Below, in pieces: positions 13,416 through 56,737 of a stretch of 64,000 nt of DNA; position 1 is the stretch's first letter; each line of letters opens with the position of its first letter. Source of the stretch: Candidatus Magasanikiibacteriota bacterium (lineage in GTDB: Bacteria; Patescibacteriota; Patescibacteriia; Magasanikbacterales; GWA2-37-8); assembly GCA_041666265.1 (NCBI GenBank), contig JBAYHH010000002.1:9096-73095 (forward strand), given 5' to 3'. The notes below the pieces were generated by a model that was given only the letters and a program-made list of their open reading frames with translations, had not been told where the DNA came from and made no database searches. A program made the position numbers and the translations under genes.

Positions 13416-16310
13416 TTAAAGTACGCGTTTAAGGTAGTGGCCGGTCGAGCTCACGGATTTTTTGGACACCTCCTCGGGCGTGCCGATGGCGATGATTTCT
13501 CCGCCCTTATCCCCGCCTTCGGGACCGAGATCGATGATCCAATCACAAGATTTGATCACATCGAGATTATGTTCAATCACCAGCACTGTATTACCTCGAT
13601 CCACCAGTCGCTGTAAAACCACAAGTAATTTTTTGACATCTTCGTAATGCAATCCGGTCGTGGGTTCGTCGAGCAGATACAAAGTTTTGGTCGTGCCATA
13701 GCGAGCAAGCTCGCGCGAAAGTTTGATCCGCTGAGCCTCGCCGCCCGATAGGGTCGGCGCGCTTTGACCCAAAGTCAAATAATCCAAACCGACCTCATTT
13801 AATATTTTTAATTTGTCGTAAATCATCGGGATGTCGCGAAAAAAATCTTCGGCGTCGGCAATCGTCATCTCCAAAATATCGGCGATTGATTTACCATTGT
13901 AATGCACAGCCAGAGTTTCGTTGGTAAATCGTTTGCCTTTGCACACATCGCAAACAATTTGCACGCTTGGTAAAAAATGCATCTCGATTTCGAGCGTGCC
14001 TTTGCCTTCGCAATTTTCGCATCTGCCCCCGGGCACATTGAAACTAAATCGACTATGACTAAACCCGCGCATGCGCGCTTCGGCGGTCGAGGCGAACAAA
14101 TCGCGGATATGATCAAAAGCCTTGGTATAAGTGGCGGGATTACTACGACTGGTGCGTCCGATCGCGCCCTGATCGATCGTGATGACGCCATCGAGATATT
14201 CCGTGCCGGTGACGCTGTGACATTTAACTTCTTTATCGGTGCGAAAAAGTTTGTTGATTACCGCTTGGCGCAAAACATCGTTCATGAGGGTGGACTTGCC
14301 CGAACCGGACACGCCGGTGAGACAAACAAAACGGCGCAAAGGAATCTCCACGGAAATATTTTTTAAATTATGTTCAAACGCTTTTTTGATTTTTAATTTG
14401 GGGGTCGAACTGCCGACATCGCGCCGTCGAAGCGGGAGCTCGATTTTCTTTTCTCCCCGGAGATATTGACCGGTGAGCGATTTTTTCGCGTCGCCGATAA
14501 TTGCTGTCCCAAAATTGTCATTCTGAGCGGAGTGAAACGAAGTCGAAAGCCTGCCCTGAGCGACAGTCGAATGGGAATCTATTCGCTTTTTGACGCCCTT
14601 GGATCCTTCGACTCGGCCTTGGGCCTCGTTCAGGATGACATTAACCGGACCGCTATAGACGATCTCACCGCCGTGTTTGCCGGCGCCGGGACCAATATCC
14701 ACCATCCAATCACTCTCGCGAATCGTATCTTCGTCGTGCTCCACCACGATGATAGTATTGCCGGCCTCGCACAGCGCGCGCAGAGTTTTGACGAGCTGAT
14801 CATTGTCGCGCTGATGAAGCCCGATCGTGGGCTCGTCGAGCACATACAGAGCGCCCACGAGTTTGGTGCCGACTTGCGACGCGAGCCGAATGCGTTGAGC
14901 TTCGCCGCCAGACAAAGTGCCGGCGCGCCGATTGAGGGTGAGATAATGCAGTCCCACATCATACATAAATTGCAGACGATTTTGGATTTCTTTTAGTACC
15001 ATGCCGGATATTTCCAATTCGCGCGGATCCATGTCCAATTCCGCCTGCGCGAAAAATTCGCGCGCCTCGGCGATCGACAAATTGGCCACTTCCCAAATAT
15101 TTTTTTGATGAATTTTTACCGCGAGCGCGTTGGTATTGAGGCGTTTGCCGGCGCACTGCGGACAGATTTCCGTGCTAAATAATTCTTTGGTGCCGAGACC
15201 GGTACAGGCCTCGCAATATCCATACGGACTATTAAATGAAAACAGGCGCGGTTCGATTTCAGGAAAAGAAAAACCGTCGTTCGGACACGAATACTGGGTG
15301 GAAAAAATCTGCTCATGGCCATCGGGATAAATCACGGCGCACAAACCATTGGACAAGTCGACCGCCGTTTCCACCGCTTCGGCGAGACGCTGGCTCACTT
15401 TATCTGTCATCCCGAACGAATGTGAGGGATCTCCACTCGTTCGTTTTTTGTGTCTTGGAGATTCTTCGCTTCGCCTGCCTGCCGGCAGGCAAGGCTCAGA
15501 ATGACAATCGTCATACGAAATTTTATCCACCACCACCTCAATCGTATGCTTATTATTTTTTTCCAAATCTATGCGCTCGCGTAAACTTTTTATTTTGCCA
15601 TCGACGCGCACTTCCAGAAATCCGCTATTGTAAAAATCGTAAAGCATCTGATAATATTCGCCTTTCCGACCACGCACCACGGGCGATAATATCGTCAACT
15701 CACCAACATTGTCATTCTGAGCGGAGCGAAGCGGAGTCGAAGAATCTATTCGCTTTCCATTGTTTTTAGATCCTTCGATTCGGCCCGCCGATTGGCGGGC
15801 CTCGCTCAGGATGACAGCGCTCATTTCATCGACAGTCATTTTTTCTATTCGGTGTCCGCACTGGGGACAATGAGGCACGCCCACGCGCGCGTATAATACG
15901 CGCAAATAATCATAAATCTCGGTGATGGTAGCGACGGTCGAGCGCGGATTGCCGGAGTGCGCTTTTTGATCAATGGAAATCGCCGGCGACAAACCCTCGA
16001 TCTCATCGACATCGGGTTTTTGCATACCACCCAAAAATTGACGGGCGTAAGCGGAAAGAGATTCAATATATCGACGCTGGCCCTCGGCAAAAATAGTATC
16101 AAAAGCCAAACTCGATTTTCCCGAGCCTGACAACCCCGTGAATACCACCATTTTGTTGCGTGGTATTTCCAGGTTAATATTTTTTAAATTGTGCTCGCGC
16201 GCGCCTTTGATGATTATCTTGTCTTTCATATTTGTTTTGAAACGCCAAATCGGCCCGAAAATCGAACCGCCTAAAACACTACCATGAAAAGAGCGTGGGT
16301 ATAATACCAA
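13416..16310 (-). CDS. uvrA: Excinuclease ABC subunit A (UvrA) with three in-frame family-A repeat insertions
   Basis: Two ABC ATPase modules are present ([23 protein letters not shown]; [15 protein letters not shown]), plus Zn modules and LSGGEAQRI signatures. The likely true start is MKDKIIIKG (about 16229). Three segments ([33 protein letters not shown]; [35 protein letters not shown]; [37 protein letters not shown]) coincide with repeat DNA. Confidence 0.95.
14516..14640. repeat. Family-A palindromic repeat, in-frame in uvrA
   Basis: TGTCATTCTGAGCGGAGTGAAACGAAGTCGAAAG...GGATCCTTCGACTCGGCCTTGGGCCTCGTTCAGGATGACA. Confidence 0.85.
15405..15506. repeat. Family-A palindromic repeat, in-frame in uvrA
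   Basis: TGTCATCCCGAACGAATGTGAGGGATCTCC...GAGATTCTTCGCTTCGCCTGCCTGCCGGCAGGCAAGGCTCAGAATGACA. Confidence 0.85.
15710..15816. repeat. Family-A palindromic repeat (full unit with outer and inner inverted repeats), in-frame in uvrA
   Basis: TGTCATTCTGAGCGGAGCGAAGCGGAGTCGAAGAATC...GATCCTTCGATTCGGCCCGCCGATTGGCGGGCCTCGCTCAGGATGACA. Confidence 0.9.
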
Positions 16311-20503: not shown

Positions 20504-21748
20504 TTAGACCGTTTTTTCGTCTGTTTTTGTTTCTTCGACGACTGCTTCTTCGTCTTTTATTTCGACCAGGGCTTCACCAGCCAACACTTCTTCGCTACTC
20601 ACTTCTTGAGTTCCTCCTTCTTCTTTCACTTTGATTTTCCAACCGGTAAGCTCGGAAGCCAAGCGCACATTTTGCCCCCCGCGTCCGATCGCGAGCGAAA
20701 ATTGATCGGGCGCGACGAGAGCAGTGGCCAATTTTTCTTTTTCTTCCAATTCGACGCGCAGGACTTTGGCCGGAGACAAACCTTTGGCCACATATTCGCC
20801 GGCATTTTCATTGTATGCGATCACATCGATTTTTTCTCCGCCCAGCTCCTCGATGATGGTATTGATACGACTGCCGCGCTGACCGATACATGATCCGATC
20901 GGGTCAATCGATTCGTCGCTCGTCCACACCGCCACCTTTGATCTCCAACCGGCATCGCGAGCCACCCCTTTGATGATGATGGTACCATCGGCGATTTCCG
21001 GAATTTCTTGAGTAAACACTTCTTTGACCAAATTTACATGGTTGCGGGACAATAAAATTTCCGGTCCGCGCGCGGTCATATTCACCGACATCACATAAAA
21101 TTTCATCTTGGCGCCGGGCTTGTAGTGCTCGCGGTTGATTTGCTGATCGGACAAAAGGACACCAGTCACTTTGCCGATATCGATAAGCACTTTTCGTCCT
21201 TCCACGCGCTGAATCGAACCGACAATAATTTGATTTTCTTGTTTTTTGAAATCTTCAAACACCATGCCTCGTTCCGCTTCGCGTAATTTTTGAATAATCA
21301 CTTGCTTGGCGGTTTGAGCGGCCATGCGACCGAACTCGTGAGTGATCTCGAGCTGAATCTCAAGAGTTTCACCTACCTTGACTTTTTTCTGAAAAAATTT
21401 GGCGTCCTTGATCATCATTTCCAATTTCGGATTGAAGTGCGCCAAATCAGCCGTTTCTTCTTCGGTGAGTTCACGGCCTTCGGCTTTGGCTTTTTCACGG
21501 CGCGCGGCCAACTCTACTTGAGCTTTTTCCAACACCTCTTCGTCGATATCTTCGACGACGGTTTTTACATCCCAAGCCTGCATATCGCCGGTTTCGGGAT
21601 TAAATTTGACTCTGATATTTTGCTGTTTGTTGCCAAAATCCTTGCGATAGGCGGCCGCGAGCGCGGTCTCAATGGTGGCCAAAACCACATCATACGACAA
21701 ATTTTTTTCGTCGCACAAGGCCTGAATTGCTTTGGTGATGTCGGACAT
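20504..21748 (-). CDS. nusA: Transcription termination/antitermination factor NusA
   Basis: N-terminal domain, S1 and two KH domains are present (...GSCIGQRGSRINTIIEELGGEKIDVI...). The C-terminal acidic tail is typical. Confidence 0.95.
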   Translation of the reverse strand: MSDITKAIQALCDEKNLSYDVVLATIETALAAAYRKDFGNKQQNIRVKFNPETGDMQAWDVKTVVEDIDEEVLEKAQVELAARREKAKAEGRELTEEETADLAHFNPKLEMMIKDAKFFQKKVKVGETLEIQLEITHEFGRMAAQTAKQVIIQKLREAERGMVFEDFKKQENQIIVGSIQRVEGRKVLIDIGKVTGVLLSDQQINREHYKPGAKMKFYVMSVNMTARGPEILLSRNHVNLVKEVFTQEIPEIADGTIIIKGVARDAGWRSKVAVWTSDESIDPIGSCIGQRGSRINTIIEELGGEKIDVIAYNENAGEYVAKGLSPAKVLRVELEEKEKLATALVAPDQFSLAIGRGGQNVRLASELTGWKIKVKEEGGTQEVSSEEVLAGEALVEIKDEEAVVEETKTDEKTV

Positions 21749-24028: not shown

Positions 24029-25655
24029 AAATTAAAAATATTATACCGGCATACGATATCGCCATCGTCGCTATCCCCACTCGCATATCAACGGCGGCCA
24101 AACTCCACCCGGCAAACCACTGCGTCAATATTATAACATACTTTAGACCGATGCCGGCTATCCAAGCTACGACTTGCCCCAAAGGAAATAATACCAACGA
24201 AAGCAGGACGGAAATAAAACCAAACAGCATCAGCCAGGGAATTATCCACAGTACGAGCACATTGACGACGGGCGCGACGATTGATAATCGACCAAATTGA
24301 AATAGGATTAGGGGCAAAGTGATGATAATCGCGGAAAGAGTAGAAATAAAAGTTTCAACTATCGCAGAATATATCACATTATCAACCTGAGCGGAGCGAA
24401 GGATCTGGTCACACTCGCATCTATTTGATAGATTCTTCGCGGAATTTATACTGAGCGGAGCGAATGTGCTCAAAATGACAGACTTTAAAACCGGACTCAA
24501 ATATACGAGGCCCATGGTCGCTAAAAATGACAACTGAAACCCCGCGTCCCAAATCAAAATATACGGATTCATCAAAAGCATCACGGCGGCGGTCAACGCC
24601 AGCACATTACCCATTTTTGATAACCGGCCCATTTGCTGGGCAATCAAAACAATAATCCCCATGATTCCGGCGCGAATTACCGAGGCCGAAGCGCCGGTAA
24701 ATATTACAAATAGTATTATTCCGGCGACACAAGCCCAAAAAGCTTGCGGGCGATACAAACCAATAGTGATAAGCGCGGTCATCAAAACAGACGCGATGAT
24801 ACTGATATTATATCCGGAAATCGCGATGATATGCGTGATGCCGACCCGGCTGAAATCATCTTTTAATTCCTGTGATAATCCGGCGCGCGCGCCATAGAGC
24901 AATCCGGCCATGAGCGATGACTCGGGTTCGGGCCAAAGTTTTTCTACTTGGGTGTTGATTTTGGATTTGAGAGAAAAAATTAATTTTAGCGGCGTTCCCC
25001 ACCAATTGTCATCCCCGCGAAAGCGGGGATCCAGACACCATTCACTCGATGCCTGGCTGGTCGCGACTGGATTCCCTTTTTCAAGGGAATGACAGCCGGT
25101 GATGGACGGTCGATAGCAAATCGAATAGATGCCGTCTTTAGCCAAATACTTTACATAATTAAATCGGGAATCATCTGAATTTTTGGGCGCTTGCAAATCA
25201 CACTTGATACGCAACACATCACCGAATCGATATTGCGGATGAAGCGGAGCATTGATAAGAACACGGCCTTTTTTACCGCTAATATTTCCGACCACATACT
25301 TCGCTCCGGCGATGCCAATATCTGGTTCCTGCGCCACCTGGCCGACAAATTCCCATTTATTTCCATTGTAATACGCGATTTGTTTTTCTGTTATCATTGG
25401 TGTCGCTGACAAATACCTGACCCCTCCGAGAATAATAAATATTATCATCAGTAACGCGCAACGCGCCCGCCAATCATACCAAAATAATATCAACAAAAAT
25501 ATTAATGCGAGCAAAAGAATATATAATCGAAATAGCCAATATTTTTCCCAATCAAACACTGAAAAAATGGAAACACCGGTAATGAAACAAAAACAAAGCG
25601 CCAAAAACGCTTTGCTTTTTGAATTGACAAATTTTTTGATCCCCTCCCCTTTCAT
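23970..25655 (-). CDS. comEC: ComEC/Rec2 DNA-uptake channel, transmembrane competence domain (DUF4131 plus Competence), with two in-frame family-A repeat insertions
   Basis: A multi-TM competence domain is present (...ELKDDFSRVGITHIIAISGYNISIIASVLM...). The inserted peptides LSINSAKNLSNRCECDQILRSAQVD and CHSLEKGNPVATSQASSEWCLDPRFRGDDNWWGT map to repeat DNA. Confidence 0.85.
   Translation of the reverse strand: MKGEGIKKFVNSKSKAFLALCFCFITGVSIFSVFDWEKYWLFRLYILLLALIFLLILFWYDWRARCALLMIIFIILGGVRYLSATPMITEKQIAYYNGNKWEFVGQVAQEPDIGIAGAKYVVGNISGKKGRVLINAPLHPQYRFGDVLRIKCDLQAPKNSDDSRFNYVKYLAKDGIYSICYRPSITGCHSLEKGNPVATSQASSEWCLDPRFRGDDNWWGTPLKLIFSLKSKINTQVEKLWPEPESSLMAGLLYGARAGLSQELKDDFSRVGITHIIAISGYNISIIASVLMTALITIGLYRPQAFWACVAGIILFVIFTGASASVIRAGIMGIIVLIAQQMGRLSKMGNVLALTAAVMLLMNPYILIWDAGFQLSFLATMGLVYLSPVLKSVILSTFAPLSINSAKNLSNRCECDQILRSAQVDNVIYSAIVETFISTLSAIIITLPLILFQFGRLSIVAPVVNVLVLWIIPWLMLFGFISVLLSLVLFPLGQVVAWIAGIGLKYVIILTQWFAGWSLAAVDMRVGIATMAISYAGIIFLIYESQNKNSRVNAWLRSRGR
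24386..24480. repeat. Family-A palindromic repeat, in-frame in comEC
   Basis: CCTGAGCGGAGCGAAGGATCTGG...GATTCTTCGCGGAATTTATACTGAGCGGAGCGAATGTGCTCAAAATGACA. Confidence 0.8.
25007..25094. repeat. Family-A variant palindromic repeat, in-frame in comEC
   Basis: TGTCATCCCCGCGAAAGCGGGGATCC...GATTCCCTTTTTCAAGGGAATGACA. Confidence 0.75.
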
Positions 25656-25685: not shown

Positions 25686-28600
25686 CTACGCCACAATGCT
25701 CACTAATTTTCCTTTGACATAAATAACTTTTTTGGGCGCCCGGCCCTCGAGCCATTTTTGCACTTTTTCACTGGCGAGCGCTCGGTCTTTGGCGTCCGTG
25801 TCGGAAATGTCAAACGGCACGACGATCGTGTCGCGCAATTTCCCATTGACCTGAATGGCCAGAGTGATTTCGTTGTCTTGAATTTTGGCGGGATTGTACT
25901 TTGGCCAATCGGCATTGACCACGCTACTTTTTTGATCAAGCATTTCCCACAGCTCTTCGCATAAATGCGGAGCAAACGGCGCGAGTAACAGGGTGAGATT
26001 TTTTAATTCATCAAAGCTGGTTTTTTCTTGCGCGCGCAATTCATTGACCCAAATCATGAGCTGTGAAATCGCGGTATTGAATTTCATCTCACTGATATCT
26101 TCCGTGACTTTTTTTATGGTCTTGTGCATGATGCCGACAGACGCGTCAGCGGTAAAATTTTTATCCAAGCGCGGAAATAGATCCCAAACTTTTTCCAAAA
26201 ATCTTTTGGCGCCCACGACTCCTTGCATATTCCAAGCGCAGGGCTGATCAAACGGCCCCATGAACATCTCGTAAACCCGCATCGCGTCCGCGCCAAAACG
26301 CGCGACGATGTCGTTGGGGTTGATGACATTATTCCAACGCTTACTCATCTTGCGACCGTCTTCGGCGAGGATTACACCCAGATTTTGTAGGCGTTTGAAC
26401 GGCTCGTCGTGCGCCACCATACCGATATCAAATAAAAATTTGTGCCAAAAACGAGCGTAAATCAAATGGCGAGTGGCATGCTCGGCTCCGCCCACATAAA
26501 AATCCACCCCGCCTTCGCCCTGCGCTTCGCTTGGGCTTCGCGGGGCAAGGCCGGATCCAATCCAATATTCAATCACTTTTTTGTCCCAGATGTATTTTCC
26601 TTTGACTCTCGGCATCGCGTAGGCCAAATAATACCAACTACTCCCCGCCCATTGAGGCATCGTGTTGGTCTCGCGCTTAGCCGGCCCGCTACATTTCGGG
26701 CATTTAGTATTAACCCATTTTTCGATAGTCGCGAGTGGTGATTCACCGGTGCCACTGGGTTCGTAGTGTTTGACTTTGGGGAGCTCAAGAGGAAGTTCTT
26801 CGTCGTCCACTACCGACCAACCCGAGTCAATGGACGCTCGCAATACCGCCGGCTCCGACTCCACGGCCCCGCCTCGACTGCTAAAATGATAATTCTGCGG
26901 AATAACCCACCACAAATCCGCCCCTAAATTTTTTTCCAGCTCAACTAAGTGCTCTTTTTTTATAATCGGTCGATGGATATCCCCTAAAACCACAATTTTG
27001 CCACCGTTGATTTTTATCTTTTTCCAATCAAATTGCCAATCACAGCTCGCCACCACTTCCGGACGATCCTGATCATTGAATCTGGGCCGCACCACCGGAT
27101 CCACCAAAACCGTACGAGCGATTTTTTTATTGATTGATTCCAAAATTCGATAAGTCACCGGACCGCCCAAGCTATGGCCGACCAAAACCGTATCTTCATC
27201 GATGCTAAATGGCGAGTTCTCCAAAACATACTTTGCTTGTTCGTTGACATTGGGATTGGTGGTATTCGGCAAATCCGGATTCCAGACCCGATGACCATCT
27301 TTCTCCAGCTCGGTTTTGAGCCACGGTTTGAAACCACGACTTGAATTGGAGGTAAAACCGTGAATTAAAATATAATTAAATTTTTTATTCGCGCACGCCT
27401 CACATTTTACCAGTGGGATCGGCTCGCCCCAATAGCGCTGACGCGAAAATACCCAATCGCGGAGTTTGTATTGAGTTTTTTTCTTGCCAATGTTTTTTTC
27501 TTCGAGCCAAGTGATCATTTTTTGTTTGGCTTCCGGTGTTTTTAAGCCATTGAGAAAATCAGAATTTGTGGAGATACCACCGCTGACATTACATTTTTCA
27601 CCTAACAATATTTTAGTCATTTCAACATCTTGATCTTTTTGAAAATTATCCGAAAAAGGTTTACTGGCGCTTTCTACTGAATACGCGTCTGGAATAACAA
27701 CACATCTAATAGGCAGATCATATTTTTTCGCGAACTCCCAGTCACGCTCATCATGCGCCGGCACGGCCATGATGGCGCCGGTGCCGTAATTGCCCAAAAC
27801 ATAATCGGCCACAAAAATCGGCACCTGCTCGCCATTCGCCGGATTAACTGCTTTTATTCCTTGGATTTCAATGCCGGTTTTTTCTTTGGCCAATTCCGTG
27901 CGCTCCATCACGGTTTTATTTTTGGCATTTGCAATATATTCGTTTACCTCTTTTTGATTTTTGATGTTAAATTTTTGATTTCTCAATAATTCGTGTTCAG
28001 GCGCTACCACACAATAAGTACACCCAAAAAGAGTATCGGGACGGGTGGTGAATACTTCGATAGACAAAGATTCCTCCGCTCGGCCTTGGGCCTCGGTCGG
28101 AATGACAGCGAATTTAACGAGTGCGCCCTCGCTTTTGCCAATCCAATTTCTCTGCATTTCTTTGATCGGCTCCGGCCACTCGGTCAATTTATCAATATCA
28201 TTGAGTAGTCGCTCGGCATAATCGGTAATTTTGATCACCCACTGGCGCATCGGTTTTTGCTCGACGATACTGCCACAGCGTTCGCATTTGCCGTCATCAA
28301 GGTCTTCGTTGGCCAGACCGGTCTTGCAACTCGGACACCAATTGATCGGCTCGTTTGATTCAAACACTAAACCGCGTTTATACATCTCGATAAACATCCA
28401 TTGGGTCCAACGGTAATACTCCGGGTCGGTAGTATTCACTTCCCGATCCCAATCATAGGTGAACCCCAAAAGTCCCAATTGTTTTTTAAAAACCTGGACA
28501 TTTTTTTCCGTGGACTCGGCCGGGTGCATTTTATTTTTAAGCGCGTAATTTTCGGCCGGCAACCCAAAAGCATCCCAACCCATCGGGTGAAGCACATTGT

Positions 28601-28811
28601 GGCCCTGCATCATTTTCATACGCGCCACGATATCGGTGGCAATGTAGCCCTTGGGATGGCCGACATGGAGTCCGGCGCCCGACGGATACGGAAACATATC
28701 CAAAACATAAAACTTCGGTCGGTCGGATGAATCGCTGGTTTTGAAAGTTTTGTTTTTCTCCCAATATTTTTGCCACTTTTTTTCGATTTTGGCCGGATGG
28801 TATTGATTCAT
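25686..28811 (-). CDS. leuS: Leucine--tRNA ligase (LeuS), 1041 aa, with an inserted YdeN/RBBP9-type serine hydrolase (alpha/beta hydrolase) domain in the ZN-2 region and a short family-A repeat insertion
   Basis: HVGHP (HIGH), the ZN-1 CxxC...CxxC, the editing-domain motif TTRPDTLFG and KMSKR are present. Between VKCEACANKK and CPKCSGPAKRETNTM lie about 230 extra aa: ILIHGFTSNSSRGFKPWLKTELEKDGHRVWNPDLPNTTNP...VLVGHSLGGPVTYRILE. Confidence 0.95.
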   Translation of the reverse strand: MNQYHPAKIEKKWQKYWEKNKTFKTSDSSDRPKFYVLDMFPYPSGAGLHVGHPKGYIATDIVARMKMMQGHNVLHPMGWDAFGLPAENYALKNKMHPAESTEKNVQVFKKQLGLLGFTYDWDREVNTTDPEYYRWTQWMFIEMYKRGLVFESNEPINWCPSCKTGLANEDLDDGKCERCGSIVEQKPMRQWVIKITDYAERLLNDIDKLTEWPEPIKEMQRNWIGKSEGALVKFAVIPTEAQGRAEESLSIEVFTTRPDTLFGCTYCVVAPEHELLRNQKFNIKNQKEVNEYIANAKNKTVMERTELAKEKTGIEIQGIKAVNPANGEQVPIFVADYVLGNYGTGAIMAVPAHDERDWEFAKKYDLPIRCVVIPDAYSVESASKPFSDNFQKDQDVEMTKILLGEKCNVSGGISTNSDFLNGLKTPEAKQKMITWLEEKNIGKKKTQYKLRDWVFSRQRYWGEPIPLVKCEACANKKFNYILIHGFTSNSSRGFKPWLKTELEKDGHRVWNPDLPNTTNPNVNEQAKYVLENSPFSIDEDTVLVGHSLGGPVTYRILESINKKIARTVLVDPVVRPRFNDQDRPEVVASCDWQFDWKKIKINGGKIVVLGDIHRPIIKKEHLVELEKNLGADLWWVIPQNYHFSSRGGAVESEPAVLRASIDSGWSVVDDEELPLELPKVKHYEPSGTGESPLATIEKWVNTKCPKCSGPAKRETNTMPQWAGSSWYYLAYAMPRVKGKYIWDKKVIEYWIGSGLAPRSPSEAQGEGGVDFYVGGAEHATRHLIYARFWHKFLFDIGMVAHDEPFKRLQNLGVILAEDGRKMSKRWNNVINPNDIVARFGADAMRVYEMFMGPFDQPCAWNMQGVVGAKRFLEKVWDLFPRLDKNFTADASVGIMHKTIKKVTEDISEMKFNTAISQLMIWVNELRAQEKTSFDELKNLTLLLAPFAPHLCEELWEMLDQKSSVVNADWPKYNPAKIQDNEITLAIQVNGKLRDTIVVPFDISDTDAKDRALASEKVQKWLEGRAPKKVIYVKGKLVSIVA
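28060..28106. repeat. Family-A partial repeat, in-frame in leuS (encodes IPTEAQGRAEESLS)
   Basis: AGATTCCTCCGCTCGGCCTTGGGCCTCGGTCGGAATGACA. Confidence 0.7.
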
Positions 28812-29551: not shown

Positions 29552-29715
29552 TTGAGACATATTTGATTCTGAGCGGGTTATATTAAGATATATTCTCATT
29601 CGTTCGATAATCATTAAAATAATTAATGATTATACTCACTCATTTCGAATATGCGCCCGCAGGCGCATCCTTTCGCGCTCGCGCGCGAAAAAAGCGAAAA
29701 ACAAATATGTCTCAA
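29552..29715. repeat. Family-B element (core TGAGCGGGTTAT...GCGCATCCTTTCGCGCTCGCGCGCGAAAAAAGCGAA with an internal AT-rich palindrome, bounded by the inverted repeat TTGAGACATATTTG/CAAATATGTCTCAA), intergenic
   Basis: Compared directly with the copies at 11393 and 16356. Confidence 0.75.
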
Positions 29716-38945: not shown

Positions 38946-41900
38946 CTACTTCAATTCCACACTAAATCCAAAACTGTTTTCAGCGAGCAATTCTTTGGTT
39001 GTCCAATCATAGGCGCGGATACGAACAGCGTAGTCGCCGGCTGGCAAACTGGCGGACAAAGATTGAGAAAAAGTTAGAGAATCGACTTCGCCCGCGTTCA
39101 TCACCCACTTGCCGGTTTTGGTCTGAACGGCTTTGCCGCTCGGACCGATGAGTTCGCGCACCATCTTCACCGTATGCTTTGCATCGGTCGAATTAATATA
39201 ACTATATTTAACCTTAAACGAAGCCGGCATTTTGACATTGGTCTTGATCTTGGCCCATACTCCGGCATCAAACGCGATGTCGGTCGCGCCGGTCATCTCG
39301 CCCAAGCTAAAATATTTATTTTTCTTTTTCTCCACTGTGATACTAAAACTGTTTTGGTCGATTGCTTTGTTCTTGGCATCATAGATGGTGATTTTTACAG
39401 TGTAATCGCCAGCGGGTAAATTACTCGGCACGGCTTCATTGATTTTACCGGTGAAAGCCTCGCCTTTTTTGAGCGACTTATTGGCAACAGCCGACTTCAC
39501 CACTTTATTTTTACTATTCACCAACTGACGAACCACTTTCACCTTGGCTACTTTGCCGGTGGTGTTGGTGTAAGTATAGGTGAGTTTAAACGCGGCTCCG
39601 GGCTGGAAAGAATTTGAATTAAGATAGCCTATCGCTATATTAGAATCCGGGTTTAGAGCAACGGTAGAAACAGCTGGCTCAGTGGAACCCGACGAACTGC
39701 TTACAGCCGGAGCATTGGGCGCGTTATAGGTAACCGTCACGGATTGCACCGCGGTTTCACCGCCGGTAGCCGATCGAAATTTCACATAAATTTTCTTGAC
39801 TCCGGATGATTCAGATAAGACAAAGTTCTTATTGGCGCCATAAGTAAGCCAAGCCGATCCAACAAAACTGGCATTTTCCGATATTGCCACATAATCGGCT
39901 CCGGTGGCGCTTAAATTTAGATTTATTTCCCTGGTAGACACTGTAGTCGGTCCGTTGATAGATGCCGGGATATTGCCCAATACGGGCGCTATCGATGTAG
40001 TAATCGAACCACCGCCGCTACTGCCGGAACTGCTGGAATTGGTGGTGGCTGAAACAGCATCGGATTTTGATCCCTCGCCATTGCTATTTACCGCTGAAAC
40101 CTTATATGAATAACTGGTAGCTGCGGTCAGGCCGGAGTCGCTATAACTATTCGTGCTGGGACTACCGATTGCAGTCGTGTAACTATCGGTGTTGCGATAT
40201 ACATTATATGATGTGGCGCCGGAGACAGCCGTCCATGACAAACTCATGGTACTCGCGGAAGCGGCGGTAGCGGATAAACCTGATGGCACACCCAGCGACA
40301 CAGCAGAGGCGGTGGCGCGATCAGAATTCGGACCCTCGCCAACATCATTGATGCCAGCCACTTTATAATACCAAGTAGCGCCACCGGTTAAACCGGTATG
40401 ATTGTATGAAGCGACAGTAGTCGTGGCCAACAAAGTGCTGGTGGGAAACGCTGAAATATCAGTCGTAGTGGCATAAACCGCGTAATAAGTAACGGTCGCA
40501 ATCGGCGCCGACCAGCTTAAATTAATTTGTCCGGGTGTGGTAGTGGCCAATGTTAATCCGGAAGGCGCATCCGGACCGCCGATTACCGGAGCAAAATCTG
40601 TAAAGTGGTCAGTTTGCACCGTCACTTTATGATTGACGGTATCGATAGTCGCCGCCATTGGTTCCCACTGACCGGAGGTTTCATCAAAATACGCAAATTG
40701 TAAACTGGATTCCGGAACCTTTAACTCTGTCAGATCATCGGCATTTAAGGTTATCGACAAAGTGGCATTACTACTCAATGAACTCACTGCTTGACCGGAG
40801 CTATGTTGCGCGGCAATGCTAACAGTGGAATTTTTTAAAGCCGTAGCATTGGGAGCATTGCGCGGAGTGGTTGAAACCATTGAAACCGTGACTATGGAAC
40901 TGTTGGCGCCCAAAGCATTGGCTGGCAAATCCAGAGTAGTATTGGCGTTGGAAATCTGCCCGCCGGAAGTATCGGTGATGCTTTGCATGGTCGGCGCCGG
41001 AGCGCTCCATCCGCTACGAGCGGTCAATGCGATATTTACTGTGGCGCTATCCGCGACTACGGTAGAAGTACCGGATGATCGCTCATATCCCGGACCCTCC
41101 GCATACACCGTCCAAGTGCCATTATCGACATTCAAAGTATAATTGCCATTGTCATCGGTGGGGGCGCCGGACCATACTTCACCAACCGATTTTTTAGCCG
41201 AAACCCAAGCATTGCTCACTGCCGATCCGCCACTGGTAATTTGACCGGAAATTGACGACGCTGTGGTTACCAAAGTAAAATTATTGCCCGTGCTGCTAAC
41301 AGCGGCGACCGTAACATTGACATCACCTTCGCTAGCAATGTAAACCGGTGTTTTAACGCCCAAACGATAAGTACCATTAGCGGGTATATGCAAAGTATAA
41401 TTTCCGGAGGCATCAGTCAAAGCTGAAAAAAATCTCGGGCTACCCAAACGACTGGCCCAAACATTGATATTCTGCACCCCGACTGCGCTCAAACTAACAG
41501 TGCCGCTGATGGTTATTAGCTCCACACTGGCTTGGGCATTACCACTAACCACCACAGTCTCGTCCGCCACCACAGTTACCACTTCACTCTCAATGATCGG
41601 ACCGGTCACAGGAGAACCGGCGTTAACCACATAAATACCGGCCGGCACTCGAATATTGGCATATTTTGATGTTCCGCTTGCCGTCCAAGAATCAGTGCCG
41701 TTACCATGTCCGGTACTGGTATTAAACACACCGGCAAATAACTGACTTAAATTTGACGAATTATCGATATTAATTCTCACTGTGCCAAAACCACCGCTAA
41801 ATACCCAGTTTTTACCGGTAGCATTACCGGCAGTAACATCAATTGATTGGGGAGACAGTCCACCGGTATCCGGAGACCAGCCACCTACTTCATAAGTACC

Positions 41901-44885
41901 GGCAGACAAATACAAAGTATAATTACCGGAAGAATCAGTTTCAGCGCCGTTACCTCCATTGGTGCCATTGATACCGCGCGCGCCAATTTTTACGCCGGCC
42001 AAACCTGATCCACCCACAGTCACCTGGCCGGTCACAGTGCGTAAATTACCGGTATTAACTGTGAATGTTAAAGAAGGATTTGATCCATTGGCGACCGCCA
42101 CCCCGGCTTGAGCGGTAAGCGAACCAAACCCGGGAGCGAAACCCTCAACGCGATATGTGCCAATTGGAACATACAAAGTAGTAGTGCCGGCCGAACCGGT
42201 CATACCCTGCCCAAAACCACCATTTCCGTTGGCAAAAATACTAGCATTGCGGATTGCGTTGCCACTACTATCCTGCACCGTGACATTAATATAATTTTCC
42301 GCGCCACTTAAATAAATTGTTTTAGTGGTCGTATTACTGGAAATAGCCACTGGAAATTCAGCCGGTTGACCGGCGCCCGGTCGGCTAACAGAAATGGAGA
42401 TGGCGCCAGCCGGAACTTTAAATTGATAGTTATTACCGCTATTGGGTTGGCAAATAGTATCTTGCGCCCCCATAAACATACCTCCGCCACTGCGTTTCAC
42501 GCCAACACAGGCATTGGTAACCGGGGTTGAACCGCCGGCATACAACAATGAGATTGTCAGCGTCTTGTCGGCCGCGACATAGGCATAATCACCCAAATCC
42601 ACCGTGCCTGAAACTGCGATATAAGCCGAACTGATCGCCGGCGGCCAATATTTGGTGGTGCCGGAAGAAAAGTTGGTATTGGTGCCGTTGCTTTCTCCGC
42701 CCATTACATTGAAACTCCAGCTCTCGCCACTCTTCACCTTCACGCGAGCATAACCATTGCCGTCAGCATCAAACCCGGGCGTACTGCCGCCAGCTGTGGT
42801 ATACACCGGCGCAAACGACTGGTAATTAGCGCTTGTTCCCAGGACATAAGCATTTTGTCCTATTACGCCATTCGTCATGTGGATGGTGGTGGTAGCATCG
42901 GGAATTCCAAAATAAATAGTGGTGGTAACAGTAGTTCCGGCCGCGCTCAATAAAGATAGGTTGCGCATACCGGGAGTCAACGCGTAATCATAGACAGTGG
43001 CGCTACTTTTATTCAACAACTCCGCGCCCACCATATAAGTTCCATCGAGCAAACCGACATATTGGGCGGATGAATTAGTGTCTAATCGTCGCGAACCGAT
43101 AAAGTATCCCTTATCCGGGTTGCCAAGCGCCACTTTCATAAAAGCACTTTCTTCGGTGGTAAGATTTCTGGTGGTGGTAGCGGTATTCATCCTTACCAAC
43201 ACATTCAATGTGTGTTTACCGCCAATGGTTACCGATGATGGCGGTGGCGGTCCCATTTCACCGCCAAAATCACTACCCTCATTACCATACAAAGAACCAT
43301 CAAGCAAACCATTGTTGGACTTAGCGGTAAATTGCGCGAAACGATTGCCCGGACCGGCGCTATCACTGCCATAAACATCGGCAGTTGTCGGGTTGGTCAC
43401 TCCATAGATAGTTACACTTAAAGGATCGCCGGCAACGGTCGCTGTACTGGATACGGTCAAAGACAGGCGGCGCGCGCTATCACTCGTGGTCGAAGTGGCC
43501 ATCGCGCCAATAGTCGAAGTGGATGTTTCGCCCAAACTGATATATTGAGTGGTGCTAATAGATATGCCGCCAAGCAGGCTCGCGTAAGAAGATGGAAAAT
43601 CTATCACAATTTTCCCACCCACCGGCACACTGGATGTGGGGGTAAATCTAAAAGTATAATTGGCCGCGGTACCGGTAGTGTAATTTGATAAAAATATTCC
43701 CGTGTTGGCATCAACGATGAAATTCCCGCCGGCCCGAGTAACGCTGGAAGTGCTGGTTTGATTATATTTTTCTGTTTCCAAAGTGCCATGTCCGGGCTGG
43801 CCATTCGCCAATGTCCCGGCTTTGGCGGTCCAAGTCAGGCTCGACATGCTGGATCGTTCGCCCAATGGATTGGAAATCCCGCCCAAAGTAATGCCAAATT
43901 GAGTGCCGTTGGCTACAGTGGTAGTGCCAACATATCCAAAGACGGTCAAAGGGCCACCCGAAGAAACACCGGCAGTATCAGCGACTGACTCGGCAGAAAA
44001 GACGGTGGTGGTTGAATTGCGTTCAATTTGCGCCGCATCGATCAAAACAGTGGAGCTCGCGCCGGACACTACCCACATTACTATCAAATTATCTCCGGTA
44101 GTATTTAATTGAGGTACTGAATAAGCATAACGACTCCAACCATTCTCTGTGGCTACCGGAGTCAAAGTTTTGCTAATATCCGTATAATCACCACTACTAC
44201 CCCAAAAAGCTTCCGGAGTGGTGGTATTAAAATTAAAAAACTGTCCACCACCGCCACCTGACTTAATAAGCAAACCGGTGGACGGACTGCCGGTTACCAC
44301 CTTCATATATATTGACACAGTAAAGGTAGTATTGGTAGCGCCGGTTAGAATGGCTGTATTAACATTTGAAACCCAAAGACTATCCGCGCCCATCATTTCT
44401 AATCGCAATGATTTAGCGCCATGAACATATTCAGAGGTGCTGGCGGTCATCACAGCATCCGTCAGTGGCGCGCCACCCGCACCGGAAAAACTCCATGGAG
44501 ATGACGGAGTATTGGCGTCATCCCAAGTTTCAAAACTGGGATTGGACATCAAATTGGCTGAACTGGCGCCCAAAGCGCTGTATAGCTGAATTCCGCTGGT
44601 AGCCGTAGTGGTCACACCGGTCAAAACAAATGGCGACCCCGAGAAACCGGTGGGAAAAATGAACTGAACCACATCGCCGCGCGCCAAATCTTCGGTGGTA
44701 GTCATGGTAAACGACCAATTGGCGCTGGTGGCGGCAATTAGATTGTCAGTATTGTTTGCTTGCGGAGCCAGTGTAAAATTGGCTCCCACGCTGGCCAATA
44801 CAGTTTGGCCGAACAAAAACGCGCCCACGCCCATACCGATAATCAGTAACAACAAAAACGCAAGCACAATATTTCGTCTTGTCAT
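38946..44885 (-). CDS. Giant (1979 aa) secreted surface protein: N-terminal signal/TM, CBM4/9-like domain, many CarboxypepD_reg/Ig-like beta-sandwich repeats, two fibronectin-III domains, two C-terminal Ig-like repeats
   Basis: MTRRNIVLAFLLLLIIGMGVGAFLFGQTVLA...; ...NPSFETWDD...(CBM-like); FN3 (PSGLTLATTTPGQINLSWSAP...YYKVAGINDVGEGPNS; PSGLSATAASASTMSLSWTAVSGATSYNVYRN...); duplicated about 80-aa C-terminal modules. Confidence 0.85.
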   Translation of the reverse strand: MTRRNIVLAFLLLLIIGMGVGAFLFGQTVLASVGANFTLAPQANNTDNLIAATSANWSFTMTTTEDLARGDVVQFIFPTGFSGSPFVLTGVTTTATSGIQLYSALGASSANLMSNPSFETWDDANTPSSPWSFSGAGGAPLTDAVMTASTSEYVHGAKSLRLEMMGADSLWVSNVNTAILTGATNTTFTVSIYMKVVTGSPSTGLLIKSGGGGGQFFNFNTTTPEAFWGSSGDYTDISKTLTPVATENGWSRYAYSVPQLNTTGDNLIVMWVVSGASSTVLIDAAQIERNSTTTVFSAESVADTAGVSSGGPLTVFGYVGTTTVANGTQFGITLGGISNPLGERSSMSSLTWTAKAGTLANGQPGHGTLETEKYNQTSTSSVTRAGGNFIVDANTGIFLSNYTTGTAANYTFRFTPTSSVPVGGKIVIDFPSSYASLLGGISISTTQYISLGETSTSTIGAMATSTTSDSARRLSLTVSSTATVAGDPLSVTIYGVTNPTTADVYGSDSAGPGNRFAQFTAKSNNGLLDGSLYGNEGSDFGGEMGPPPPSSVTIGGKHTLNVLVRMNTATTTRNLTTEESAFMKVALGNPDKGYFIGSRRLDTNSSAQYVGLLDGTYMVGAELLNKSSATVYDYALTPGMRNLSLLSAAGTTVTTTIYFGIPDATTTIHMTNGVIGQNAYVLGTSANYQSFAPVYTTAGGSTPGFDADGNGYARVKVKSGESWSFNVMGGESNGTNTNFSSGTTKYWPPAISSAYIAVSGTVDLGDYAYVAADKTLTISLLYAGGSTPVTNACVGVKRSGGGMFMGAQDTICQPNSGNNYQFKVPAGAISISVSRPGAGQPAEFPVAISSNTTTKTIYLSGAENYINVTVQDSSGNAIRNASIFANGNGGFGQGMTGSAGTTTLYVPIGTYRVEGFAPGFGSLTAQAGVAVANGSNPSLTFTVNTGNLRTVTGQVTVGGSGLAGVKIGARGINGTNGGNGAETDSSGNYTLYLSAGTYEVGGWSPDTGGLSPQSIDVTAGNATGKNWVFSGGFGTVRINIDNSSNLSQLFAGVFNTSTGHGNGTDSWTASGTSKYANIRVPAGIYVVNAGSPVTGPIIESEVVTVVADETVVVSGNAQASVELITISGTVSLSAVGVQNINVWASRLGSPRFFSALTDASGNYTLHIPANGTYRLGVKTPVYIASEGDVNVTVAAVSSTGNNFTLVTTASSISGQITSGGSAVSNAWVSAKKSVGEVWSGAPTDDNGNYTLNVDNGTWTVYAEGPGYERSSGTSTVVADSATVNIALTARSGWSAPAPTMQSITDTSGGQISNANTTLDLPANALGANSSIVTVSMVSTTPRNAPNATALKNSTVSIAAQHSSGQAVSSLSSNATLSITLNADDLTELKVPESSLQFAYFDETSGQWEPMAATIDTVNHKVTVQTDHFTDFAPVIGGPDAPSGLTLATTTPGQINLSWSAPIATVTYYAVYATTTDISAFPTSTLLATTTVASYNHTGLTGGATWYYKVAGINDVGEGPNSDRATASAVSLGVPSGLSATAASASTMSLSWTAVSGATSYNVYRNTDSYTTAIGSPSTNSYSDSGLTAATSYSYKVSAVNSNGEGSKSDAVSATTNSSSSGSSGGGSITTSIAPVLGNIPASINGPTTVSTREINLNLSATGADYVAISENASFVGSAWLTYGANKNFVLSESSGVKKIYVKFRSATGGETAVQSVTVTYNAPNAPAVSSSSGSTEPAVSTVALNPDSNIAIGYLNSNSFQPGAAFKLTYTYTNTTGKVAKVKVVRQLVNSKNKVVKSAVANKSLKKGEAFTGKINEAVPSNLPAGDYTVKITIYDAKNKAIDQNSFSITVEKKKNKYFSLGEMTGATDIAFDAGVWAKIKTNVKMPASFKVKYSYINSTDAKHTVKMVRELIGPSGKAVQTKTGKWVMNAGEVDSLTFSQSLSASLPAGDYAVRIRAYDWTTKELLAENSFGFSVELK

Positions 44886-45954: not shown

Positions 45955-46082
45955 ATGAAAATATTTAATTTCGAATTTTGAATTTCGAACTATATTTAAT
46001 TGTTAATTTTGCGATTTTGGAATTTATTATTTGAGATTTGTTATTTATTTGGAATTTGTAATTTTATATTTGAGATTTATCG

Positions 46083-56607: not shown

Positions 56608-56737
56608 AAATGAAATTTCAAATAATAAATTACAAGCAACAAATTATTTTTTGGGATTTATTATTTGATATTTGTAATTTATTTGTGATTTGAAATTTTG
56701 AATTTGAGATTTCATGGTATCTTATCACAAAAAACGA

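Follow-up and report, generated by a model that had tools for sequence, protein, structure and literature searches.

Host gene and position of the insert

The window, i.e. the whole stretch of 64,000 nucleotides that was analysed, belongs to a Patescibacteria (Magasanikbacteria) genome and carries on its reverse strand a gene for a bacterial-type leucyl-tRNA synthetase (LeuRS) with a serine-hydrolase domain nested in its second zinc-finger region (ZN-2). The features referred to below are, in the direction of transcription and with positions given along the window:

25686..28811, (-) strand: leucyl-tRNA synthetase gene, bacterial type, host of the insert; open reading frame (ORF) of 1041 aa plus stop
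28656..28667, (-) strand: HIGH motif (HVGH, aa 49–52), read from the LeuRS translation
27504..28151, (-) strand: CP1 editing domain of LeuRS (aa 221–436), apparently intact; Pfam PF13603, 192.9 bits
27393..27404, (-) strand: first ZN-2 knuckle, C470-E-A-C473, upstream of the insert and separated from it by two residues; aligns with Thermus CEAC
26823..27386, (-) strand: nested YdeN/RBBP9-type serine-hydrolase domain, aa 476–663 (KKFNY...ASIDS), 188 aa; delimited by comparison of filled and empty alleles
27165..27179, (-) strand: nucleophile elbow G-H-S547-L-G of the insert; aligns with RBBP9 Ser75
26967..26981, (-) strand: acid-loop segment D611-I-H-R614-P after strand beta7 of the insert; placed by alignments
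26886..26888, (-) strand: catalytic histidine H642 (N-Y-H-F) of the insert; aligns with RBBP9 H165
26691..26702, (-) strand: second ZN-2 knuckle, C704-P-K-C707; aligns with Thermus CPKC
26337..26351, (-) strand: KMSKS motif (KMSKR, aa 821–825), read from the LeuRS translation

The LeuRS ORF scores 978.6 bits against the NCBIfam model TIGR00396 (leuS_bact; cut-off 548.4), with the match split in two by the insert, and it matches Thermus LeuRS (1h3n) at E = 1.9e-199. Pfam domains found in the ORF are tRNA-synt_1, tRNA-synt_1_2, and Anticodon_1. As in the enzymes of Thermus thermophilus (1h3n) and E. coli (4aq7), the order of parts is Rossmann core, ZN-1, CP1, four-Cys ZN-2, anticodon-binding domain, and C-terminal domain. 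By contrast with both, the ZN-2 loop of the query holds a 188-aa enzyme domain, and the leucine-specific domain of the Thermus enzyme (Thermus residues 580–637) is missing from it. The AF2 model of the full-length LeuRS has a pLDDT of 87.3 and a pTM of 0.81.

The CP1 editing domain contains TTRPDT at aa 255–260 and GTGAIMAVPAHDERD at aa 343–357. Specifically, T255, T256, R257, D259, T260, H353, D354, R356, and D357 are invariant among 78 LeuRSs with or without inserts and, judged from the sequence, both the synthetic site and the CP1 editing site are intact. The same comparison of 78 LeuRSs finds C470, C704, and C707 invariant, and these are putative zinc ligands. In a related bacterial-type LeuRS, the ZN-2 cysteines are needed for aminoacylation (PMC4005665).

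Among the LeuRS relatives compared, empty alleles run from CExC directly into GWVPVPE, whereas filled alleles read CExC-xN-KK...N-x-GW. In the query, the insert is bordered exactly by the first ZN-2 knuckle (CEAC-AN) on one side and by GWSVV on the other. The alignment of the Thermus CEAC knuckle to the LeuRS ORF stops at Thermus residue 443, and Thermus residues 444–446 are replaced by query aa 475–667. A preliminary description of this DNA had counted about 230 extra residues in the interval 26702–27404, which does correspond to aa 470–704. The distance between the two Cys pairs is indeed about 230 residues; only 188 of these (aa 476–663) are extra, and the remaining ~40 are the normal ZN-2 loop. 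The strings quoted in that description are found in the translation, i.e. VKCEACANKK at aa 468–477, GHSLGG at aa 545–550, and CPKCSGPAKRETNTM at aa 704–718.

The GC profile of the window has no break particular to the insert borders, and the borders themselves consist of nothing but A-rich Lys and Asn codons. A transposon- or MITE-type insertion is rejected because there are no terminal or direct repeats and no target-site duplication at the borders, either in the window or in a filled/empty pair of relatives (P0033/P0065, see below). According to Pfam, the insert contains the hydrolase domain alone, with no mobility enzyme (endonuclease or recombinase) and no Hint domain, and a six-frame HMM search finds no second copy of the hydrolase domain in the window, matching the LeuRS ORF only. 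An intein is also rejected, as the insert begins with K476 and ends with I-D-S663 followed by G664, its fold is that of an alpha/beta hydrolase, and Pfam detects no Hint domain.

Identity of the nested domain

The preliminary description had proposed a YdeN/RBBP9-type hydrolase inside the ZN-2 of LeuRS, and this identification is borne out. HMM searches, profile comparison, structure prediction with AF2, and a fold search with Foldseek all confirm that the insert is a complete (PF06821-like) alpha/beta-hydrolase domain. Both Pfam families suggested for it exceed their gathering (GA) thresholds in the insert: Abhydrolase_6 (PF12697) reaches 34.8 bits (GA 26.3), and Ser_hydrolase (PF06821) reaches 25.6 bits (GA 22), the latter covering profile positions 1–98 of 172 only. 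BLASTP aligns the insert with YdeN at E = 5e-13, with 33% identity in the N-terminal half of the insert; the YdeN sequence quoted in the preliminary description agrees with that of 1uxo. A profile built from the insert and 13 stand-alone homologues matches 1uxo over its full length at E = 1.9e-39, and RBBP9 at 8e-28.

The AF2 model of the insert alone has a pLDDT of 87.6 and a pTM of 0.88, and within the full-length model the pLDDT of this region is 93–98. With Foldseek, the insert model aligns to 1uxo with TM-scores of 0.82/0.83 over 185 columns, and to RBBP9 with 0.74–0.81. The predicted domain thus shares with B. subtilis YdeN (1uxo) and human RBBP9 (2qs9, 7oex) a small alpha/beta-hydrolase fold of ~185 aa over the full length, a GHSxG nucleophile elbow, and the position of the catalytic His. 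It differs from these free-standing proteins in being nested in another enzyme. No likeness to editing domains (CP1, AlaX/ThrRS-N2, YbaK/INS, and DTD) was seen among the 50 best PDB matches listed, all of which are alpha/beta hydrolases, and neither Pfam nor NCBIfam finds an editing-domain family in the insert.

Catalytic residues of the insert

Of 190 related domains, 189 have the nucleophile Ser, whatever the host, and 189 have the catalytic His. In the insert subtype to which the query belongs, all 34 members retain Ser547 and His642. Because conservation of these two residues reaches 99–100%, the domain appears to be under selection for catalysis.

The acid differs from that of RBBP9. The column of RBBP9 D138 (motif S-D-N-D-P) is D in 79 of 80 stand-alone proteins, while the query insert has Arg614 at this position and so lacks the canonical catalytic Asp. 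Within the query subtype, 27 of 34 members have F, R, or Y in this column, and only 5 have an acidic residue (D or E). Three residues upstream, however, the column of RBBP9 residue 135, which is D611 in the query, holds D in 29 of the 34, and on the basis of these alignments D611 is a candidate relocated acid. The Ser-Asp-His triad that had been looked for is therefore present as regards Ser547 and His642, whereas its Asp column is occupied by Arg614 and the only Asp available is the upstream D611.

Catalysis by RBBP9 proceeds through an aminoacyl-enzyme on Ser75 and depends on a free alpha-amine (PMC8866121), and activation of valacyclovir has been reported for it (Shenoy et al. 2020, as cited in PMC7730578). 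The aminopeptidase specificity of RBBP9 is not transferable to the insert because Glu108, the residue that anchors the alpha-amine, is not conserved there. Given that the canonical Asp is missing as well, the domain could be weakly active or inactive.

Presence, absence, and history of the insert

Close relatives differ in whether they carry the insert. For example, the LeuRSs of P0033 (filled) and P0065 (empty) have 93.6% core amino-acid identity, and their genes are colinear, with 86.6% nucleotide identity, the difference being an in-frame block of exactly 582 nt. The GC content of this block is 33.8%, compared with 40.5% for the host gene. The LeuRS core closest to that of the query (P0017, 78%) is also without insert. 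As such, LeuRS can do without the block, as is shown by near-identical LeuRSs that lack it. On a neighbour-joining tree of 78 LeuRS cores, built without support values from sequences that we selected, insert presence takes at least 18 gains or losses, and shuffled labels take 25.9 ± 2.2.

Core identity shows no correlation with insert identity (rho = 0.01, P = 0.88; rho = 0.09 among members of the subtype), while the two halves of the LeuRS core correlate with each other at 0.56–0.63. Two insert subtypes that share only 19–28% identity are found at one and the same site in LeuRSs with core identities of 75–81%. Among relatives, insert identity is 45–50% against 65–70% for the core, i.e. the insert evolves faster. 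Taken at the level of sequence, the history of the insert is decoupled from that of its host gene. The incongruent histories, which are the basis for proposing a mechanism, suggest that recombination was involved.

Distribution among hosts and sites

The in-frame LeuRS-hydrolase junction is seen in over 40 independent homologues. A survey of relatives, as recommended in the preliminary description, finds the architecture in 33 species-level Patescibacteria genomes from many samples, in a scan that used a narrow alignment and is thereby biased toward the insert subtype of the window. Moreover, records from NCBI, JGI, and ENA contain an identical protein (P0014), which is encoded on two contigs. 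That a hydrolase gene was chimerically joined into leuS by an assembly or gene-calling error, a concern raised at the outset, has next to no probability, because the same junction recurs across many independent assemblies; the ORF is also continuous, and we found no evidence that supports a chimera.

Related domains are found at three LeuRS sites, namely A (~aa 236/253), B (476/664), and C (~377/409). They are nested also in ValRS, AlaRS, SecA, Der, TsaD, PepN, and an amidase of Patescibacteria, and outside LeuRS the domain family forms end-to-end fusions with NUDIX, S51/S33/S9 peptidase, IMPase, glyoxalase, and nucleotidyltransferase domains. Related LeuRSs, in turn, also nest NUDIX, GNAT, or ASCH domains. 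LeuRS is much more frequent than any other host, with 33 of 38 loci in the species-level genomes and about 80 of the best 150 representatives, both samples being biased toward relatives of the query. Inserts in different host proteins are about 40–45% identical, and those of SecA, TsaD, Der, and AlaRS are closest to inserts at LeuRS site A (42–45% identity). The transfers between genes are thus likely to be ancient, because identity across hosts is this low. A "mobile domain insertion" had been one of the options put forward for this locus, and it gains real support from the patchy presence, the decoupled histories, and the variety of hosts and sites.

Stand-alone homologues have no conserved gene neighbourhood among those inspected, and their contexts are unrelated to one another. 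One of them adjoins a tRNA-guanine transglycosylase (TGT) gene.

A search of open-access papers and bioRxiv preprints brought up no account of an alpha/beta-hydrolase or NUDIX insert in a LeuRS. New here are the occurrence of the domain at several LeuRS sites and in several hosts, the nesting of NUDIX, GNAT, and ASCH domains, and a patchy presence that is decoupled from the host. The NCBIfam model ileS_w_GNAT (IleRS with N-acetyltransferase) likewise represents an unrelated catalytic domain embedded in a class I aminoacyl-tRNA synthetase, and its status as an exception model means that NCBI curators treat that architecture as distinct. Judged from the model listing, the query differs from it in having an alpha/beta hydrolase, a LeuRS host, and the ZN-2 site.

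A proposed accessory hydrolase carried by LeuRS

Our main reading, to which we assign a probability of roughly 0.5, is that the insert is an autonomous and probably active accessory hydrolase cassette, housed in a fully functional LeuRS and exchanged by recombination. The domain would fold autonomously in a surface loop of LeuRS, two residues past the first Cys pair of ZN-2, and the zinc site would clamp both ends of the insert together. In the active hydrolase, Ser547 would attack an ester or amide with His642 as the base, and D611 would stand in as the acid for the lost canonical Asp. By analogy with RBBP9, the domain would have a substrate of its own, probably a small acyl or alpha-aminoacyl ester or amide, and its activity may be of a "house-cleaning" or aminopeptidase-like kind. 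LeuRS would serve mainly as a constitutively expressed carrier, with the hydrolase taking no step in leucylation, and the cassette may have been gained, lost, and replaced among leuS alleles via homologous recombination through the conserved flanks. The use of three sites in LeuRS could reflect a benefit specific to LeuRS, beyond mere tolerance, and this is a point against LeuRS as a mere carrier.

Another explanation is an editing or deacylase activity added in cis beside the CP1 hinge, i.e. a third hydrolytic site of LeuRS that would act on the aminoacyl ester of mischarged or unwanted aminoacyl-tRNA, or on a non-cognate aminoacyl-adenylate. We consider this unlikely, although several observations are consistent with it. 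The aminoacyl-Ser intermediate of RBBP9 and its need for a free alpha-amine fit an alpha-aminoacyl ester (PMC8866121), and hydrolysis of the valyl ester bond in a nucleoside analogue has been reported for RBBP9, as cited in PMC7730578. Among the hosts are three synthetases of the editing type (LeuRS, ValRS, and AlaRS), LeuRS is strongly over-represented with its three sites, sites A and B both border the CP1 linker in sequence, and one stand-alone homologue has the TGT gene as its neighbour. However, the CP1 residues are invariant with or without insert, so there is no lost function in need of compensation, and LeuRSs that are 94% identical to filled ones do without the insert, which indicates that fidelity does not need it. 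Domains of the same lineage also occur within SecA, Der, TsaD, and PepN and in fusions with NUDIX, IMPase, and glyoxalase domains, and the equivalent of the RBBP9 alpha-amine anchor, Glu108, shows no conservation. The idea that the insert compensates for a degenerate CP1 editing site is rejected, given that none of the 78 LeuRSs deviates at the CP1 catalytic residues; since this holds for all variants, the insert does not replace editing. A role of the insert in tRNA deacylation is possible, with nothing that speaks for it specifically.

Two further explanations concern the domain itself rather than LeuRS. The cassette could be a selfish, intein-like but non-splicing element whose imprecise loss from essential genes would be lethal, which would spread between alleles and genes by homing-like or recombinational transfer, and whose enzyme function would be secondary; we rate this as rather improbable. 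The resemblance to inteins lies in the precise in-frame placement in conserved essential proteins, the patchiness among close relatives, and the history decoupled from the host gene. The recurrence of precise sites in hosts that are mostly essential housekeeping proteins, an almost random spread over the host tree, an insert GC below that of the host gene, and the proximity of the SecA, TsaD, Der, and AlaRS inserts to those of LeuRS site A also argue for a selfish element. Unlike inteins, however, the insert lacks the Hint fold, the splicing junction residues, and a homing endonuclease, and it is expected to remain in the mature protein with its hydrolase catalytic residues kept. The block also has no recombinase, terminal repeats, or target-site duplications, the conservation of Ser and His points to selection for catalysis, and the divergence across host proteins places the transfers between genes far back. 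Alternatively, catalysis may have been lost along with the acid, leaving a pseudoenzyme or structural module that acts as a scaffold, an interaction surface, or tolerated ballast. The replacement of the canonical Asp by Arg614 and the scarcity of acidic residues in this column of the subtype point in this direction, as do the faster evolution of the insert relative to the core and the close relatives that do without it. Yet Ser547 and His642 are strictly conserved in the subtype, the GHSLG nucleophile elbow is intact, the fold is predicted at very high confidence, and the new Asp three residues upstream looks like a relocation of the acid and not like decay, and we regard a pseudoenzyme as quite improbable.

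Wider significance

The addition of accessory domains is a classic way for aminoacyl-tRNA synthetases to gain new functions; most known examples come from eukaryotes, and most are appended to a terminus. In the present case, an entire catalytic domain lies within the ZN-2 zinc knuckle in dozens of Patescibacteria species, and its cassette-like behaviour is a more important point than the nesting. Such behaviour suggests a general way for ultra-small genomes to package or spread accessory enzymes within essential genes.

A broader proposal is that in-frame, non-splicing cassettes of enzyme domains are a previously unrecognised genetic passenger of Patescibacteria, comprising the hydrolase and perhaps NUDIX, GNAT, and ASCH domains, which would be repeatedly gained, lost, and swapped in loops of essential proteins. 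We put this forward tentatively and hold it to be doubtful. If true, it would amount to an intein-like lifestyle without protein splicing, by which essential enzymes become carriers of accessory catalysis. The permissive loops that such a passenger would use belong to proteins of translation and secretion (LeuRS with three sites, ValRS, AlaRS, SecA, Der, and TsaD).

The inserts also inflate and distort marker-gene alignments used for the phylogeny of the Candidate Phyla Radiation, and they mark permissive sites in LeuRS for engineered domain insertion.

The host gene and its inserted domain

The whole finding lies in a single ORF that encodes a bacterial-type leucyl-tRNA synthetase (LeuRS), which exceeds the NCBIfam leuS_bact cut-off (978.6 bits against 548.4), matches Thermus thermophilus LeuRS 1h3n (E = 1.9e-199) and contains the Pfam domains tRNA-synt_1, LeuRS editing domain and Anticodon_1. 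Its main features are:

Window 25686-28811, reverse strand: LeuRS ORF, bacterial type, 1041 aa
LeuRS aa 49-52: HVGH motif
LeuRS aa 821-825: KMSKR motif
LeuRS aa 476-663 (nt 26823-27386, reverse strand): extra block KKFNY...ASIDS, 188 aa, relative to insert-free relatives

The block is a complete domain of the YdeN/RBBP9 fold, with conserved Ser and His, and its host is an intact LeuRS that accommodates it in a permissive loop. The strings quoted in the preliminary description are found where it placed them, and 26702-27404 corresponds to LeuRS aa 470-704. Its count of about 230 residues between the Cys pairs of the second zinc finger (ZN-2) also holds, but only 188 of these are extra. Specifically, the insert starts two residues past the first pair (C470, C473) and is followed in protein order by a normal ZN-2 loop of ~40 aa and the second pair (C704, C707). 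Query residues 475-667 replace three residues of the Thermus enzyme, 444-446, in the alignment, and among 78 related LeuRSs those without the insert ("empty") read PLVHCEKC directly followed by GWVPVPE, while those with it ("filled") read CExC-xN-KK[domain]...N-x-GWVPVPE. In a bacterial-type LeuRS, Cys-to-Ala changes in ZN-2 abolish aminoacylation (PMC4005665), so the host loop is no trivial spacer. Four empty alleles (P0065, P0059, P0058, and P0071) have C-E-K-D-GW in place of C-E-K-C-GW and thus lack the second Cys of the first knuckle; the filled alleles nearest to them retain all four Cys.

The assignment to YdeN/RBBP9-type hydrolases is borne out by every approach used. The insert scores above threshold against Pfam Abhydrolase_6 (34.8 bits) and Ser_hydrolase PF06821 (25.6 bits), in both cases over the N-terminal half of the profile only, and matches YdeN by BLASTP (E = 5e-13). 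A family profile built from the insert and 13 stand-alone homologues finds YdeN 1uxo (E = 1.9e-39) and RBBP9 (8e-28), both full-length. AlphaFold2 predicts a confident alpha/beta fold for the domain alone (pLDDT 87.6, pTM 0.88) and for the insert region of the full-length LeuRS (93-98; overall pLDDT 87.3, pTM 0.81), and the top Foldseek PDB matches are YdeN (TM 0.82) and RBBP9 (TM 0.74-0.81).

To judge from its sequence, the synthetase appears fully functional. In CP1, the editing residues T255, T256, R257, D259, and T260, as well as H353, D354, R356, and D357, are invariant in 78/78 LeuRSs, filled or empty, and therefore the hydrolase is no substitute for a lost editing site. The leucine-specific insertion domain is absent: nothing corresponds to Thermus residues 580-637, and aa 816 leads directly to 822, immediately ahead of KMSKR (LeuRS aa ~816-822, window 26352-26366 region).

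An identical protein, P0014, is deposited in NCBI, JGI, and ENA as 'leucine--tRNA ligase [Candidatus Magasanikbacteria bacterium]', which places the organism in the Patescibacteria (Candidate Phyla Radiation, CPR). The surroundings of leuS are ordinary housekeeping genes and no mobile-element island; neighbors include NusA, an L,D-transpeptidase, a metallo-beta-lactamase-fold protein, a methyltransferase, ComEC, a GT2 glycosyltransferase, Fpg, UvrC, TsaC, and a release factor.

LeuRS variants, insertion sites, and other hosts

Close relatives found with the full LeuRS come in a plain form (~800 aa), a form with a NUDIX domain inside CP1 (~950 aa), a form with the hydrolase (~1000 aa) and a form with both (1150-1320 aa); rarer forms combine the hydrolase with ASCH or GNAT at the junction of catalytic core and CP1. 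The NUDIX domain sits at about aa 375-410 in window numbering. Relatives with other nested enzyme domains are P0016, P0070, P0020, P0089, P0108, P0239, and P0147, and NUDIX-hydrolase fusions also occur free-standing (P0229 and P0238).

An exhaustive HMMER search with the insert as sole query returns 1143 proteins at E <= 1e-3. Among the best 150 of these, for which host and site were assigned, the hydrolase is nested in LeuRS at three sites (window numbering):

Site A: about aa 236/253
Site B: aa 476/664, occupied in the window
Site C: about aa 377/409

The same 150 include AlaRS, ValRS, SecA, Der/EngA, TsaD, M1 aminopeptidase, and amidase as further hosts. End-to-end partners are NUDIX, S51, S33, and S9 peptidases, inositol monophosphatase, glyoxalase, and nucleotidyltransferase. 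In another search with the insert on its own, all matches were stand-alone proteins; the best, P0001 (44% identity; contig region L042:574-2364), is separated by 13 nt from an upstream tRNA-guanine transglycosylase (TGT) gene, and other stand-alone homologues are found in unrelated contexts.

Species-representative genomes were also scanned with the window subtype as seed, i.e. the 34-member group of LeuRS insert domains to which the window insert belongs. The 38 loci obtained comprise 26 at LeuRS site B and 7 at site A; 4 more lie in short ORFs, and 1 is in a different class I synthetase. Informative record names point to Magasanikbacteria, Falkowbacteria, Uhrbacteria, Parcubacteria, Paceibacterota, Spechtbacterales, and Gracilibacteria. 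The survey of related LeuRSs that the preliminary description had called for thus finds the insertion again and again. Its recurrence across LeuRS relatives and species-level genomes shows that the architecture is genuine, and public databases already contain examples of it. The same recurrence excludes an assembly artefact.

Presence, absence, and decoupled histories

LeuRS can do without the insert, whose evolution is independent of that of its host. The core (LeuRS minus insert) nearest to that of the window, P0017 (78% identity), has no insert, and in a neighbor-joining tree of 78 LeuRS taxa (796 core columns) filled and empty forms are interleaved to the tips. The insert requires at least 18 state changes (35 of 78 taxa filled), against 25.9 +/- 2.2 with shuffled labels; NUDIX presence on the same tree requires 18 against 20.8 +/- 1.7, a nearly random distribution. 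Filled P0033 and empty P0065 share 93.6% core identity and the same gene neighborhood. At the nucleotide level the two genes align colinearly (86.6% nt identity) with the sole exception of one exact 582-nt in-frame block, whose GC content is 33.8% vs 40.5% for the remainder of the gene.

Across the 35 site-B LeuRSs, pairwise identities of insert and core are uncorrelated (Spearman 0.01, P = 0.88; 0.09 within the window subtype), whereas the control comparison, between the N- and C-terminal core halves, gives 0.56-0.63. For the flanks closest to the insert (75 aa), the correlation with it is weak (0.15-0.28). Two insert subtypes that are only 19-28% identical to each other are found at one and the same site in LeuRSs with cores that are 75-81% identical. 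The core usually evolves more slowly than the insert (window vs P0019: core 68%, insert 52%), yet between the window and P0016 the insert is 75% identical and the core only 70%. No repeats, target-site duplications, or mobility genes were found at the insert borders, which makes allelic homologous recombination the simplest mechanism; the cassette would be exchanged between alleles through the conserved LeuRS flanks.

Catalytic residues and possible roles

In our alignment of 190 related domains plus RBBP9 and YdeN, the nucleophile position (S547 in the window, S75 in RBBP9) is Ser and the histidine position (H642 and H165, respectively) is His in 189/190 domains each. At the position of the canonical acid, which is D138 of RBBP9 within S-D-N-D-P, Asp is present in 79/80 stand-alone proteins, in all inserts of non-LeuRS hosts and in 13/13 members of the second LeuRS insert subtype. 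In the window subtype, this column holds Phe, Arg, or Tyr in 27/34 and an acidic residue in 5/34, and 29/34 carry Asp at the column three positions upstream, where strand beta7 ends and where stand-alone proteins mostly have Ser. Of the Ser/Asp/His triad looked for in the insert, S547 and H642 are thus in place, but Arg614 occupies the position of the canonical Asp, with D611 as the upstream Asp. Since Ser and His are still strictly conserved, we read the acid of this subtype as relocated, with D611 as candidate, rather than decayed. The alpha-amine anchor of RBBP9, Glu108, differs in not being conserved among the aligned domains.

We favor, with a probability of about 0.5, an autonomous accessory hydrolase, predicted to be active, for which LeuRS would serve as carrier. 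Like NUDIX, GNAT, and ASCH, it would belong to a set of small enzymes of the 'house-cleaning' type that Patescibacteria nest in essential proteins. RBBP9 forms an aminoacyl-enzyme on its Ser and needs a free alpha-amine (PMC8866121), and it is reported to cleave the valyl ester valacyclovir (in a reference cited in PMC7730578). From this chemistry, the valacyclovir cleavage, and the fusions to several peptidases, one may reasonably guess, but no more than guess, that the substrates belong to the alpha-aminoacyl esters or amides.

An added editing or deacylase function is chemically attractive and would fit the strong preference for LeuRS, but with CP1 intact, the insert dispensable, and non-synthetase hosts in existence, we consider it unlikely. 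Still less probable is a selfish, intein-like but non-splicing cassette: the distribution fits, but any mobility machinery is lacking and the conservation of catalytic residues would be left unexplained. That the domain is a pseudoenzyme, for which the lost canonical Asp is the sole hint, appears the least probable of these readings.

Synthetases with added domains are nothing new, and an IleRS-with-GNAT architecture is already curated at NCBI. Some JGI records are named 'leucyl-tRNA synthetase/predicted alpha/beta hydrolase family esterase'; a description of the LeuRS-hydrolase architecture was not found in the open-access papers and bioRxiv preprints searched. What should surprise specialists is a whole enzyme within the ZN-2 knuckle, the recurrence of one domain family in further essential proteins as well as at three sites of LeuRS, and an intein-like presence/absence with histories decoupled from the host.

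Other features of the window

Three short, GC-rich, imperfect palindromes lie in frame inside coding sequence:

Window ~28065-28097: LeuRS aa 239-249, 'PTEAQGRAEES'
Window ~26505-26558: LeuRS aa 752-769, 'GSGLAPRSPSEAQGEGG'
Window ~25010-25050: ComEC-like ORF aa ~205-216, 'CLDPRFRGDD'

In the ComEC copy, an 8-bp stem is perfect (ATCCCCGC/GCGGGGAT; RNA fold z = -3.0); folding is weaker for the two copies in LeuRS (z -1.7 and -1.9), which lie in regions of low AF2 confidence. The first of these falls precisely on site A, which is occupied by the hydrolase in relatives. We take the palindromes to be reminiscent of palindromic elements inserted in frame in Rickettsia genes. Dispersed short repeats (40-100 nt, 87-96% identical, some inverted) also occur throughout the window, including inside ORFs. 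These repeat pairs and other ORFs are:

Window 15405-15506 / 10983-11081: repeat pair
Window 14541-14591 / 55016-54967: repeat pair
Window 29650-29698 / 11424-11472: repeat pair
Window 46015-46078 / 56649-56712: repeat pair
Window 611-9646, reverse strand: giant ORF, 3011 aa
Window 38946-44885, reverse strand: giant ORF, 1979 aa
Window 20504-21748, reverse strand: NusA

The N-terminal domain match of NusA (aa 3-160) exceeds its profile of 119 positions, which suggests that this domain may carry a lineage-specific insertion of ~40 aa as well.
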